From the NCBI GenBank assembly GCA_963695855.1, contig CAVOHZ010000010.1, forward strand, positions 1,344,001 through 1,408,000: 64,000 nucleotides of DNA. The letters run 5' to 3'. Below, piece after piece: positions 10,068 through 64,000 of this stretch (positions are counted from its first letter, which is position 1; each line of letters starts with the position of its first letter). The notes under the pieces are model-generated. The model did no database searches. It had not been told where the DNA came from and was given only the letters and a program-made list of their open reading frames with translations. The position numbers and the translations under genes are program-made. Source of the stretch: an uncultured Nitrososphaerales archaeon. Lineage in GTDB: Archaea > Thermoproteota > Nitrososphaeria > Nitrososphaerales > Nitrososphaeraceae.

Positions 10068-10329
10068 TGCATACAAGAAATTACCTATGGCATTATTTTC
10101 TACATTGTGGTCAAACTGACTATCTGTTTGATTTTTTTGCTCTTGCTGCACCAATATTACAATATTATTATTGGTATGGGCCTAAATAAAATGACATTTT
10201 TGACACGGGCTCGGAGGTGTGTGAATTGTTTTTGACACAATATTTTTGGCCCATATGCTATCTTTGATTTATAATATCATGAGTTGATAAATAATAATAT
10301 TCTAAATAATCGTCCAAAATATTGATACG

Positions 10330-10500
10330 TTAATGGGTAGAAACAGAACAAAAACCAGAATGAGCTTCAAGCCATGCATAAAGATCCCTTATAACAGACT
10401 GCTGTATTGGGCCTATACCAGTTTGCCATTGAGATGAGGGATAGAATACATGACCAAGATTTGGATATGTGATTAGCATATGATCAGGATGTCTTACATC
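10330..10500 (-). pseudogene. Alpha/beta hydrolase C-terminal fragment
   Basis: HPDHMLITYPNLGHVF (catalytic His region); coding similarity stops at the GGCTCTG element boundary at 10501. Confidence 0.65.
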
Positions 10501-10505
10501 GGCTC

Positions 10506-10844
10506 TGACTATATGAAAATCTTTATTGGTACCAATCCCTTCTGTATTCAGGCTAGGTTCAAAGTTAACATACTCCGTACGAGAGTGAGGCTCTGACTGA
10601 ACCAATATCCGAGCGGCTATACTACTACCTCATAAAGAAGGTGAATAGATGTTTGCCGCCTGTTAGCCGACATAAAAAAAAGAAAATAAAATAAAAAAAG
10701 AATGAAAAAAAGCAAAATCAAGGGAAAGTAACAAGTATAGCATATGCTATTTTAGATAATTTTTAATATGATGAATTATAATAGAATATTACGCTTAACA
10801 GGAACATAAGGATGACCTGATACAGATAGAGATTTTCATAGATG
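10506..10844 (+). mobile_element. Non-autonomous IS1111/IS110-type mini element (RNA-only), copy 1
   Basis: TG-actat-ATGAAAATCT (10513-10522) ... AGATTTTCAT (10830-10839)-aga-TG; near-identical copy at 63616-63950 with different outer flanks; removing it restores GGCTCTGTTAA. Confidence 0.85.
10550..10670 (+). ncRNA. Predicted bridge/seekRNA of the mini element
   Basis: Two stem-internal loop-hairpin modules closed by ggcta/tagcc; loop strands match the target flanks (aagttaaca, gaggctctg) and the element right end (gaatagatg). Confidence 0.72.
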
Positions 10845-10924
10845 TTAACTTAACGAAAGATCTAACTATATGTGAAGAGTCAAGTGAATCCAAATCAGAC
10901 AGTAAGTTATGCTCTAACAGTAGT

Positions 10925-12008
10925 ATGATGTATGTAGGAATGGATCTCCATAAGAACTACTTACAGATTGGAGTAATGGATGAGAAAGGAAAAGTAATCA
11001 GCAATAGCAAAATAGAGAATGATATACAACAGATAGGGGATTTTTTGACCAGATCAATAAAATTAATAAAAATGATGATGGTAAGAACTGCTGCCACAAT
11101 CATCAAAAGATAGTAATGGAATCATCATGTGTGTATGGTATAACTATACGAATACTGGTCTGAAGAAAGAAATCTGGATGTAATACTATCAAATCCAATT
11201 AAAACAAGAGCAATTGGATCAGCAAAAAAAATAAAGACAGATAAACTTGATGCAGTAAAACTATCTAGTTTACTGAGAGGGGGATTCATATCAGAATGTT
11301 ATGTACCTAATAAAAAAACTATGGAACTACTTGATGAGCTGGTAAGACATAGAATTGCACTGGTGATGAGAATGAGAACCAGATTGAAGAACAAGATCCA
11401 TGGGATAATGCATATGAAAGGAATGCGAATTAATAGTAACAATAATAGTACTGCTCGCTTCACAATAGAGTATATCAATAAACTACAAGCATTGAACGAT
11501 TATAGAATTGATGCTTACATTCGTTTGATAGACTCATTTGATTATGAGATTAAACAGGTATCCAAGCAGATTCCTGCTGTGTATGCAAAAGAAGATATTG
11601 CAAGATTATTGGTGACAATACCTGGTATTAGATACCATATATTCTGCTCTTCTTCTTCTAATAAGTGAAATTGGCGATATTAACAGATTTACAGATTCAA
11701 ACCATCTTTGTTTGTTCGTATTCGGGATTGATACCATCCATCAACTCATAGTTCTTTCTGGTGGAATAACATATCATGGTAACATAACTAAAACAGGCAG
11801 TAGCAAATATCTAAGATGGATAATGGCTGAATGCATGCGTTCTCATATCAGCAGAACTCAACCTGACAGTAACATAACAAAATTCTGTTATAGACTGGCA
11901 AAAAAGAAGGGAAGTGCTAAAGCAACAGTTGCAGCATCATCCAAACTGTTAAAGATATATAGTCTACTGGATAATGAAAGAGAAGAGAGAATATACACAT
12001 ACAAATAA
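10925..12008 (+). pseudogene. IS110-family DEDD transposase, multiple frameshifts
   Basis: YVGMDLHK, KTDKLDA, LVTIPGI, SGGITYHGNITKTGS..YLRW spread over several frames. Confidence 0.92.
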
Positions 12009-12084
12009 CAACAATAACAATGATAAAATCGAAAGAAAGATTTAAAATTTATTATTATAGTTAAGGTGATAACAAATTATTATT

Positions 12085-12200
12085 ACAGTCACAAGACATC
12101 TATTGAGGGAAAGCCTCGTCGATCTAACTGTGGTAACTCCTTAACAAATGGATAAAGACGGTAATGAGGGAAAGCCTCGCATGGATAAGTATCCGTTTCT
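12085..12200 (+). ncRNA. Predicted bridge/seekRNA of the IS1111 element
   Basis: Two GAGG-GAAAG-CCTC hairpins (12105, 12166), each followed by a 9-mer ending in the TA core: gtcgatcTA (left flank gatcTA) and gcatggaTA (right end catggaTA). Confidence 0.65.
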
Positions 12201-12333
12201 ACAAATAATGAGGAGATGAATAAATAAAAAAATAACCATGATGAATTAAGATAAATATTTAATAATACTTCACATGGATATAGCTGTGAATGTCTTGCTT
12301 GTTTTTTATTTTATGATAGTATTCTTAAATTTA

Positions 12334-13238
12334 GAGCCTATCCCAAAAATAGATAGGAATATAGCTCGTTTGTTTCTTATCATATCTGATAATGTTTAAG
12401 AGTAAAAAGTATGTTAGAACAATTACACGCATTCCAGATGATCTATGGAATGAAATTAAAAATATTTTGCCAGATGAAAAGCCAGAGAACACTATAGGTC
12501 GTCCAATTGTTCCATATAGAAAAGTGTTTGATGGTATCATGTTTATCCTGAGGACTGGATCTCAGTGGAAAATGTTACCAATATAATATGGTTCTGGTTC
12601 TACATGCCATAGAAGATTTCAGGAATGGAGAGAATTAGGTATTTTCGATATACTATGGACTAGCTTACTAAAAATATATGATAACAAAAAAGGAATCAAA
12701 TGGTCATGGCAATCACTCGATAGTATATCTGTAAAATCGCCTTTAGGGGGGGGGGCGAAGACAGGCCATAATCCTACTGACAGAAGCAAATTAGGCAGTA
12801 AAAGACATATTCTTACAGATAAAGATGGTATTCCATTGTCTGCTGTTATAACATCTGCCAATACTCATGATGTTACTGTTGCAATTGATACAGTTGACAG
12901 CACAGTTATCAAAAGACCATCATTATTATCCAAACCAAAGCATAACCAAATGAAACAGAATCTGTGCCTTGATAAAGCATATCATTCCAAAGAAGTAGAA
13001 CAAGAAATTATCAAAAGGGGATACATACCACATATACGACACAGAAGAGAAGAAGAAGAAAGAATATTTCATAGAAAACATCCCACAAGAAGATAGGTAG
13101 TTGAGAGAACTAATTCATGGCCTAACAGATTCAGGAAATTATTTACAAGGTATGAAAAGAAGGATAAAGACTATCTTGGTCTTGTACAATTAGCAAATAG
13201 CATAATTGTTTATAGGAGGATAATTTTGGGATAGGCTC
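12334..13238 (+). mobile_element. IS5-family (IS427/IS1031-like) element with pseudogenised transposase
   Basis: TIRs gagcctatcccaaaa / ttttgggataggctc; TTA direct repeat; RTGSQWKMLP, LCLDKAY, VERTNSW motifs interrupted by stops. Confidence 0.9.
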
Positions 13239-52600: not shown

Positions 52601-52719
52601 GGCTCTGTTAAGTTAACCAAAAATAATCAGGTAAATTGAAAAAATCAAATAAAATTGAGCGTAGAACATAATATAAAAGCAGAACATATCTAATATTTTA
52701 TTCTTAAGTTAATAGCACC
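52601..52719. mobile_element. IS6-like MITE; unoccupied target of the mini-IS1111
   Basis: Ends ggctctgttaagttaac and cttaagttaatagcacc (reverse complement ggtgctattaacttaag); no ORF. Confidence 0.65.
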
Positions 52720-63283: not shown

Positions 63284-63615
63284 CCTTTATTACTACATTC
63301 TATAAAATCTAGACTTTAAGGCGACTGAATTCTCCTATAGTAGTACGAGATCCAGGTGTAATAAGAGATAGATATTGTTCGTAAAGTGATTCACAATTCT
63401 TATCTTTTTCTGCTAAATGTACAAACCTAATTAGATTTTCTTTAGTAGCATTTATTTCAAATTGGGGAGAAACTAATCCCACTTTCATATTTATTATTAT
63501 ATTTTATAATATAAAAACATAATATAATCAACAATAGAAATTTCATATTGTTACGTTATTCTAAATCGTTTACTGAAAATCATGGTTTAGTAATTTACAT
63601 AAAATCATTGGGCTC

Positions 63616-63950
63616 TGACTATATGAAAATCTTTATTGGGTACCAATCCCTTCTGTATTCAGGCTAGGTTCAAAGTTAACATACTCCGTACGAGAGTGAG
63701 GCTCTGACTGGACCAATATCCGAGCGGCTATACTACTACCTCATAAAGAAGGTGAATAGATGTTTGCCGCCTGTTAGCCGACATAAAAAAAAGAAAATAA
63801 AATAAGAATGAAAAAAAGCAAAATGAAGGGAAAGTAACAAGTATAGCATATGCTATTTTAGATAATTTTTAATATGATGAATTATAATAGAATATTACGC
63901 TTAACAGGAACATAAGGATGACCTTATACAGATAGAGATTTTCATAGATG
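63616..63950 (+). mobile_element. Non-autonomous IS1111/IS110-type mini element (RNA-only), copy 2
   Basis: GGCTC-TG-actat-ATGAAAATCT (63623) ... AGATTTTCAT (63936-63945)-aga-TG-TTAAGTTAA. Confidence 0.85.
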
Positions 63951-64000
63951 TTAAGTTAAGGAAAATTTATGAAATAAATTATAAAATTCTTTTAAAATTG

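Follow-up and report, generated by a model that had tools for sequence, protein, structure and literature searches.

The 64,000-nt stretch of DNA analyzed here (hereafter the window; positions 1,344,001 to 1,408,000 of contig CAVOHZ010000010.1, assembly GCA_963695855.1, from an uncultured Nitrososphaerales archaeon) contains two copies of a short non-coding element, at 10506-10844 (copy A) and 63616-63950 (copy B). Most likely this is a non-autonomous member of the IS110 family, of the IS1111 type and resembling a MITE (miniature inverted-repeat transposable element), in which an element of a longer kind, here called X, has lost its open reading frame (ORF) and kept its ends and its bridge/seek RNA gene. 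As such it would be guided by its own RNA and use a borrowed enzyme, probably that of the full-length relatives residing in the same genome. The host genome (3.55 Mb in 11 contigs, ~31% G+C) is archaeal by its rRNA. An earlier note, made from the sequence of the window, had proposed a non-autonomous element in an archaeon that carries its own guides and is mobilized by a recombinase encoded elsewhere, and this reading is supported.

The short element, its full-length relatives and their target

Copy A, on the forward strand and 339 bp from left core TG to right core TG, reads GGCTC (10501-10505)-TG (10506-10507)-ACTAT-ATGAAAATCT (10513-10522) at its left boundary and AGATTTTCAT (10830-10839)-AGA-TG (10843-10844)-TTAACTT (10845-10851) at its right, GGCTC being the outer end and TTAACTT the inner part of a targeted terminal repeat. 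The left end (10508-10522) consists of the 5-nt extension ACTAT, 7 nt with the core TG, and the subterminal inverted repeat, which is perfect over 10 nt in the pair ATGAAAATCT/AGATTTTCAT, agrees at 13 of 14 positions if extended, and is kept in short and full-length copies alike. It is followed by the putative bridge/seek RNA gene (10551-10668), by an A-rich stretch (10669-10720), less conserved than any other part of the element, at the place where full-length copies have their transposase ORF, and by the right non-coding end (10735-10842), which holds a hairpin, ATAGCATATGCTAT (10737-10750), the second subterminal repeat and the 3-nt extension AGA. Copy B (335 bp, forward strand) has the same architecture across 63611-63957, with the RNA gene at 63662-63779, the subterminal repeats at 63623-63632 and 63936-63945, and the flanks GGCTC (63611-63615) and TTAAGTT (63951-63957); it is 96.9% identical to copy A over 359 aligned bases. 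Among ORFs of at least 50 amino acids, the sole one overlapping copy A (10330-10605, minus strand) extends into the unique left flank, and none is the element's own. An A/T-rich box, TCTTTATTGG (10520-10529), lies 22-31 nt upstream of the stem that closes the RNA region; as a candidate archaeal promoter it carries little weight at 31% G+C.

A BLAST search of the genome with window positions 10401-12300 as query returned seven near-complete short copies: copy A itself (C10:1354501, the query, 100%) and, with their identities to it, B (C10:1407611, 96.9%), C (C10:1746456, 99.2%), D (C8:114019, 99.2%), E (C3:37679, 84.6%), F (C8:187903, 86.0%) and G (C3:465544, 79.8%). Four of the short copies are mutually 97-100% identical and lie in four different contexts. 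When the 80-nt flanks of all seven were aligned, the left flanks proved unrelated beyond GG(C/T)(T/C)C-TG; the right flanks start with TG-TTAA(C/G)TTAA, and those of A and B have only TGTTAA(C/G)TTAA(C/G)GAAA in common. Other copies too have flanks of this kind, GG(C/T)(T/C)C-TG at the left boundary and TG-TTAA(C/G/T)TT at the right one. The two copies, the end architecture with its subterminal repeats and TG core, and the unrelated outer flanks reported in the earlier note are thus borne out, as is its expectation that GGCTCTG/TTAA-type flanks would recur in other copies. One larger segmental duplication, which that note had named as a threat to its reading, is ruled out, since the left flanks are unrelated in all seven copies and the likeness of the right flanks stems from the targeted repeats, entered in either orientation.

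A 360-nt query had matches in 20 of the 24 other congeneric genomes and in none of 16 genomes from other families of the order. Near-complete, contiguous short copies number 27 in eight other genomes of the genus (seven in G010, eight in G012, three each in G014 and G017, two each in G019 and G022, and one each in G018 and G023), and the short elements range from 318 to 342 bp. All short copies have one deletion architecture in common, which indicates that the short form arose once and then multiplied. The element has the features of a MITE: it is short and non-coding and has inverted repeats, its many copies lie in unrelated contexts, and it has an autonomous relative, X.

The BLAST search of this genome with 10401-12300 also yielded weaker hits (74-79%) that correspond to the first ~200 nt of the element and run on into transposase-like DNA, and tblastn with the ORF found there located five loci in the genome, which make up group X. 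Two of the five are uninterrupted, X1 (element C10:929312; ORF C10:929522-930598) and X2 (element C8:48391; ORF C8:48601-49677), and the remaining three are broken; X1 and X2 have ATGAAAATCT repeats, so that an intact IS110 transposase with the inverted repeats of the short element, which the earlier note had suggested looking for, is present. Alignment of the five copies with their flanks gives a left end (G)GCTC-TG-ACGAT-ATGAAAATCT, then an RNA region of two modules, homologous to the one in the short element, a 356-amino-acid ORF with a TTG start, and a ~170-nt non-coding tail ending in AGATTTTCAT-GGA-TG-TTAA(G/T)TT. X and the short element thus have the ATGAAAATCT subterminal repeats, the 7- and 3-nt extensions, the two-loop RNA and the target in common. 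Over its final ~125 nt the short element can be aligned to the tail behind the X stop codon, including a conserved hairpin ATAGC-NNNN-GCTAT, from which it follows that the short element corresponds to an X-like element minus the ORF alone. The loop of this hairpin is ATAT in the short element and GGAG in X (L057, ~1560); the hairpin could be part of a circle-junction promoter or a protein-binding site.

The X1 transposase matches PF01548 (77 bits) and PF02371 (79 bits), both over the cut-off, and the NCBIfam model NF033542 'IS110 family RNA-guided transposase' (223 bits, cut-off 140), which assigns it at family level only. Its similarity to the IS621 transposase is only distant (38.6 bits); in the alignment to IS621 (8wt6) the GID, E-(S/A)-TG, D..D and E-S positions are kept, which are those of the catalytic residues D11, E60, D102, D105 and S241 described for IS621 (PMC11208158). 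Full-length forms measure 1411-1437 nt from repeat to repeat (exceptions: L045, 1464; X5, 2470, insertion-disrupted) and are present in this genome and in G010, G012, G013, G014, G018, G019 and G022. In a tree of the RNA region, guide columns included, the short clade stands apart from the full-length clade.

The sequence TGTTAASTTAAS has 74 matches in the genome and makes up the inner portion of the terminal inverted repeats that bound several further repeat families, namely a ~109-118-bp repeat, a 712-bp element and IS4/5-like elements, in which a variable GGNNC precedes it. A short or X right end lies directly upstream in 8 of the 74 matches; six of the 74 are unoccupied GGCTC-TG-TTAAGTTAA sites, and two more differ from these in the first two bases. 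Within the window an unoccupied target, GGCTC-TG-TTAA, lies at 52601-52611 on the forward strand and forms the end of a ~118-bp repeat (52601-52718). The insertions of B, C, D and X1 are each in a ~109-bp repeat, of which one end is occupied and the other intact; copy C lies in the GGCCC end and in opposite orientation, which accounts for its GGCCC flank. Occupied and unoccupied ~109-bp repeats differ by exactly the element plus one TG, a difference that, as read from the sequences, bears the mark of recombination at a shared core. An occupied site has TG at either side of the insertion and an unoccupied one has it once, and in the IS110 family such a TG represents the shared core, not a staggered-cut duplication. 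The element targets the ends of other mobile DNA, and since other small repeats and IS4/5-like elements carry its target as their terminal inverted repeat, many landing sites are open to it in the genome. IS4321 and IS5075, which are autonomous and bacterial, reportedly target the terminal repeats of Tn21-family transposons.

The targeted small repeats form a superfamily with the terminal inverted repeat GGNNC-TGTTAA(C/G)TTAA(G/C), seen in the window at 52601-52718, 63949-64000 and 10843-10862, whose members are the ~109-118-bp elements, the 712-bp element (at least six copies) and the IS4/5-like elements; the five variable bases beside TG are those discriminated by IS110-type guides. A broken IS4/IS5-type transposase gene occupies 12392-13096 (DUF4096, 51 bits; DDE_Tnp_1, 22.8 bits against a cut-off of 23), and upstream of it a terminal-repeat-like sequence ends in TTAAATTTAGAGCCTATCCC (12325-12345); the right flank of one X copy, X3, is arranged alike.

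The guide RNA region and its co-variation with ends and targets

The putative RNA gene, assigned from its fold, from pair counts in 40 homologues and from RNA-library contigs over 10565-10667, is bounded by a closing stem, GGCTA (10551-10555) with TAGCC (10664-10668), that encloses two modules, each of the order stem, internal loop, stem, all on the forward strand. The target-binding module (10556-10603) has the outer stem GGTTCA/TGAACC and an inner hairpin at 10572-10586. Its 5' strand, AAGTTAACA (10562-10570), is complementary to the core and right target, being the reverse complement of the right junction TGTTAACTT (10843-10851), and its 3' strand, GGCTCTG (10589-10595), equals the left target and core and is followed by ACT (10596-10598), the first three nucleotides of the element. 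The match of the loop strands to both junctions had been seen in the earlier note; the identity to the left junction (10501-10507) runs further than the seven nucleotides given there, over the 10 nt of GGCTCTGACT and into the element itself. GGCTCTGACT occurs four times in the window, at the two left junctions and in the two 3' strands of the target modules, and nowhere else, against a chance expectation of 0.05; a count of four was reached in 0 of 100 shuffles.

The donor-binding module (10613-10659) has the outer stem GCGGC/GCCGC and the inner hairpin ACCT..AGGT (10627-10642). Within its 5' strand, TATACTACT (10618-10626), TATA pairs with left-end positions 3-6, and within its 3' strand, GAATAGATG (10643-10651), ATAGATG (10645-10651) equals the right end and core (10838-10844), as had been noted before. 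Both 3' strands continue past the core into the partner DNA, GGCTC-TG-ACT reproducing the left junction and ATAGA-TG-TT the right one; these past-core bases are invariant across the parsed copies, an observation to which no test is attached. Two copies carry internal duplications in the target module. Copy G (C3:465544-465923, L066) has its 3' guide strand and outer stem in tandem duplication, and in the short copy at L010 TGAAC is repeated; in both cases slippage within the RNA gene of a decaying copy seems to be the cause.

Pairs were counted in an alignment of 40 homologues (A1) over five helices, namely the closing stem and the outer and inner stem of each module. Of the cells, 91.4% pair, against 31-37% when the partners are slid by one to three columns, and changes on both sides occur in 45 cells, a number reached in 0 of 500 shuffles. 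Compensatory changes are present in both stems of the donor module, where positions alternate between CG and UA (19/16), AU and GC (31/5), CG and UA (26/9), and UA and CG (23/11), and among the short copies the inner donor stem is either ACCT/AGGT or GCCT/AGGC, a compensatory change. The target-module stems are nearly invariant and hence uninformative either way.

Guides, ends and flanks were parsed from 56 copies, of which 27 are short, 13 are full-length and 16 are truncated at contig ends or otherwise unclassified, and their association was assessed by random re-pairing with 20000 permutations. Over all rows, the 7-nt right target fits the 5' target strand exactly in 19 of 39 copies (permuted mean 9.0; reached in 3/20000), and the three variable nucleotides of the left target fit the 3' target strand in 32 of 51 (mean 21.9; 0/20000). 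At the donor side, the first base of the right-end extension (A or G) fits the 3' donor strand in 30 of 35 copies (mean 18.6; 0/20000), and left-end position 3, T in short and G in full-length copies, fits position 4 of the 5' donor strand in 43 of 52 (mean 22.4; 0/20000). Results are similar without nine mis-parsed or badly decayed rows. Among the short copies alone, exact fits number 10/26 for the right target (496/20000), 12/26 for the left target (159/20000) and 19/23 for the right-end base against the donor guide (5/20000); 20/26 and 18/26 short copies lie within one mismatch of guide and flank at the right and left target, respectively.

At the positions read by the guides the ends of the short element and X differ, ACTAT against ACGAT on the left and, in the subclade of copies A-D, AGA against GGA on the right, and the donor loops differ at the matching positions, TATA against TATC and ATAGATG against ATGGATG. 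On the RNA-region tree several guide changes are independent. A GGTCC guide arose separately in short copy F and in the full-length L048, with a GGTCC flank in each; L047 has GGTGC, and L055 GGCTG, in both guide and flank; L007 and L026 have the guide GGCTG and the flank GACTG. Counter-examples to the agreement of guide and flank are L043, L056, L050, L003 and L049. Two copies in G012 depart from the TG core: L029 has a left core TA, a guide GGCTC-TA-AC and a right core TG, such that the core may have changed in both guide and junction, and L030 has the guide of L029, a degraded left junction (parsed core AA) and a right core TG.

Proposed mechanism and alternative explanations

Under the reading we prefer, RNA would be transcribed from the short element and would bind the DEDD transposase that an intact X copy supplies from another genomic locus. 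The donor loop would pair with the ends of the element itself, on the right with ATAGA-TG and on the left through TATA at positions 3-6, the target loop would pair with both strands of GGCTC-TG-TTAAC, and recombination would take place at the TG core, the element passing through a circle whose junction reads CATAGA-TG-ACTAT. Several of these steps we infer: that the RNA is transcribed with defined ends, that the element uses its own RNA and not the X RNA, that there is a circular intermediate, and that mobilization occurs in trans.

Four of 20 listed sequencing runs were used in this connection, one of DNA and three of soil metatranscriptomes, the latter from two studies. Contigs from each of the three RNA runs span 10565-10667, and those from two of the three span 10739-10853, which is a weak hint at transcription of the two-loop region; the DNA run also covers the left end and flanks. 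The stretches 10506-10539 and 10268-10403 are without RNA contig cover, a lack not used as evidence. Contig boundaries at 10564/10565, 10581/10587 and 10663/10667 were considered as RNA ends and rejected, as they coincide with variable positions or the A-rich stretch and one contig joins an rRNA-like stretch.

Several observations weigh against a self-guided element. The RNA contigs carry neither strand nor ends, DNA may be present in RNA libraries, and these soils contain the element in multiple copies. No joint, circle junction or empty orthologous site was seen in the four runs, and an Rfam scan of 10300-12500 gave five chance-level matches (E 3.7-9.9), none of them over the RNA region. When the RNA region is folded, as the earlier note had advised, single-sequence energy is no better than that of shuffles (z of -1.15 for the plus and -1.79 for the minus strand) and RNAalifold alone recovers only the two outer stems; we relied on the pair counts. 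Conservation among short copies is not specific to the RNA: the mean pairwise identity of 22 copies is 0.89 for the left end, 0.75 for the RNA region and 0.84 for the middle, highest (0.91) for the 36-nt part next to the right end and 0.54 for the A-rich stretch, with sub-blocks of the RNA region at 0.83-0.94 save two with alignment gaps (0.28 and 0.69). Exact matches of guide and flank are a minority in the short copies, the permutation tests ignore relatedness, and the T/G against A/C co-variation at the donor side is essentially one event, separating the short from the full-length clade. Finally, the 5' donor strand pairs over only ~5 of 9 positions. The poor match of the second donor guide recorded in the earlier note is not specific to the short element; the first four bases of this guide co-vary with the left end, and the right donor guide of IS621 is also described as discontinuous (PMC11208158).

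An alternative is that the element is mobile and is guided by the RNA of X, its own RNA gene being a passenger inside the left end. The target loops of X and the short element are indeed nearly the same (GGCTCTG; AA[C/G/A]TTAACA), the 3' donor strand of many short copies (ATGGATG) does not differ from the X strand, conservation extends to every non-coding part of the element, and a bridge RNA acting in trans has been inferred for ~800-bp recombinase-only IS110 elements (10.64898/2026.08.14.744561). We nevertheless regard this explanation as unlikely. The switching together of right end and donor guide within the short clade is our main reason for preferring an element that guides itself and borrows its enzyme, and would be expected if recognition of each short element goes through its own RNA. 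In addition, the compensatory changes in the inner donor stem occur among short copies; TATA pairs with ACTAT in all short copies, where the X strand would mismatch; and the flanks of the retargeted short copies F, L007 and L026 fit the guides which these copies carry and do not fit the X guide.

That the copies are immobile relics, deletion remnants of full-length elements, is very improbable given that one deletion architecture recurs in nine genomes and hence multiplied after the deletion. The four copies of 97-100% identity also speak against it, each being placed precisely at GG(C/T)(T/C)C-TG-TTAAS in its own context, as do the two intact transposase genes; what relics would explain is that the older copies (E, F, G and many elsewhere) are 70-86% identical with guide-flank mismatches or internal duplications, and that the runs contained no junction or empty orthologous site. 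We attach just as little probability to a host or regulatory role, in which the RNA would be a transposase-titrating decoy or a small RNA acting on matched repeats and mobility would be secondary. The conservation of the element across species, except for the A-rich stretch, and the RNA-library contigs over the RNA region would fit such a role, and the MITE-borne Ssr9 RNA of Pseudomonas putida has been discussed as possibly regulatory (PMC12288879). Positions are not conserved, however, the left flanks are unrelated and copies decay, and the co-variation of guides with flanks and ends is predicted by transposition and not needed for a decoy.

Neighboring elements, known systems and significance

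Directly to the right of copy A lies another IS110-family element, T (10863-12280; TA core at 10863-10864 and 12279-12280), whose transposase gene is frameshifted into three ORF fragments (10925-11113, 11321-11668 and 11712-12008). The earlier note had missed this gene (10925-12008), as well as the targeted repeat ends and the full-length relatives. We considered the fragments as the short element's own gene and rejected this, because they belong to an element with its own ends, ATGTGAAG/CTTCACAT, and its own core, because T-type left ends occur at four other places without the short element, and because the T protein is 31-38% identical to X1. The left end of T is ACTAT-ATGTGAAG (10865-10877) and the right end CTTCACAT-GGA (12268-12278), again with the 7/3 geometry, and the element sits 20 nt inside a terminal repeat of the kind targeted by the short element. 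Elsewhere in the genome there are a broken copy of T (C3:298797-301285) and left ends without the short element at C10:1254619, C10:1267811 and C3:365865.

A candidate seekRNA of T lies 3' of its gene (12095-12200), with two modules, a hairpin GAGGGAAAGCCTC in each, and conservation in the C3 copy. Its first 3' strand, GATCTAACT (12121-12129), equals the left junction of T (10859-10867), and its second, CATGGATA (12179-12186), equals the right end and core (12273-12280); the fold energy of this candidate is not significant. With the T candidate downstream and the X RNA upstream of the transposase gene, both IS1111-type RNA positions would be present in one genome. Two further groups of IS110-family transposases, 33.5% and 41.7-44.8% identical to X1, are found at C10:140729, C10:267175, C10:1598722, C10:287645 together with C10:291009, and C8:371102; tblastn gave the same score for three copies of the first, and an inverted pair separated by 1.25 kb belongs to the second.

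Judged from its sequence, the family of short element and X is most fittingly assigned to the IS1111 type within the IS110 family, its RNA gene being atypically placed. IS1111-type elements are described as having subterminal repeats, usually of 11-13 bp and perfect or near-perfect, with 7-nt left and 3-nt right extensions and a downstream non-coding region, an upstream one occurring in only a few members; in their seekRNA the top-strand match lies 5' of the bottom-strand match, an order reversed in the IS110 type (PMC11187229). The IS1111-type label given in the earlier note stands as regards the subterminal repeats, the extensions (TGACTAT before the left repeat and AGA after the right one, one TG core being counted) and the guide order, with the 5' strand AAGTTAACA complementary and the 3' strand GGCTCTG identical to the top strand; it does not extend to the RNA gene, which in full-length X lies upstream and not downstream of the transposase gene. 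The ORF of an autonomous IS110 element is present in X1 and lacking in the short element.

Among described systems, ISEc11, ISKpn4 and ISPa11 resemble the short element in their subterminal repeats, 7/3 extensions, guide order, specific target and lack of any duplication beyond the core; they differ in being autonomous with the RNA downstream of the transposase gene, where here it is upstream and the short form has no transposase, and in repeats that are usually 11-13 bp, where here 10 nt are perfect and 13 of 14 agree with one mismatch (PMC11187229). The same source describes that engineered cargo between the ends alone moves when transposase and seekRNA are supplied separately (PMC11187229). 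The IS621 bridge RNA is described as likewise having two pseudo-symmetric modules (stem, guide, stem-loop, guide) for target and donor, with recombination at a core dinucleotide in both and a discontinuous right donor guide; its guide strand also runs into the partner DNA, and the past-core bases here resemble its handshake guides (PMC11208158). As described there, IS621 differs in a reversed guide order (the left target guide is the 5' strand), in a CT core against TG here, and in having no subterminal repeats (PMC11208158).

In Pseudomonas putida KT2440, MITEPpu9 is described as an IS110-family MITE-like module with IS-like ends and a small RNA gene, related to ISPpu9, that stands alone in the chromosome, forms its own circles and inserts into repeats, the ISPpu9 transposase being proposed to act in trans (PMC12288879). 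Its RNA is reported to be Ssr9, not a bridge RNA, and dispensable for transposition (PMC12288879), whereas the RNA of the short element is a bridge/seek homologue with guides for its own ends and target, in an archaeal host. The ~800-bp recombinase-only IS110 elements, which lack the 5' untranslated region, also represent a natural split of components with one supplied in trans, and are the converse case, with the enzyme kept and the RNA gone; that study, as described, filtered for elements retaining a transposase, so that RNA-only forms would go unlisted (10.64898/2026.08.14.744561). IS1111 in the QMITE2 repeat of Coxiella burnetii similarly targets repeated mobile DNA, and is described as autonomous and bacterial (PMC5896051). 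In the literature surveyed, mostly outside subscription journals, we found no natural transposase-less IS110/IS1111 element with its own bridge RNA, and none in archaea.

On balance we lean towards the view that a guide RNA gene has here turned transposon, giving rise to a ~340-bp lineage that is an independent parasite of IS1111-type transposases and has persisted and diversified across an archaeal genus. If so, the enzyme would be a shared good, donor and target recognition would be private to each element, and retargeting would proceed by mutation of the loops. Repeats of this kind would score in annotation as unexplained intergenic repeats or as 'partial IS110', their RNA being without an Rfam model. 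Bridge/seek RNA recombinases are under development as programmable genome editors, and the natural systems described so far combine one enzyme and one RNA on one element. A natural RNA-guided MITE would provide natural evidence that transposase and bridge RNA can come from different loci, and an element made of RNA and ends would show a minimal donor, the natural use of the enzyme in trans and the operation of the system in archaea. Such an element would also show changes in loops tracking changes in ends and sites in a real population, and would constitute a ready natural set of retargeted variants.

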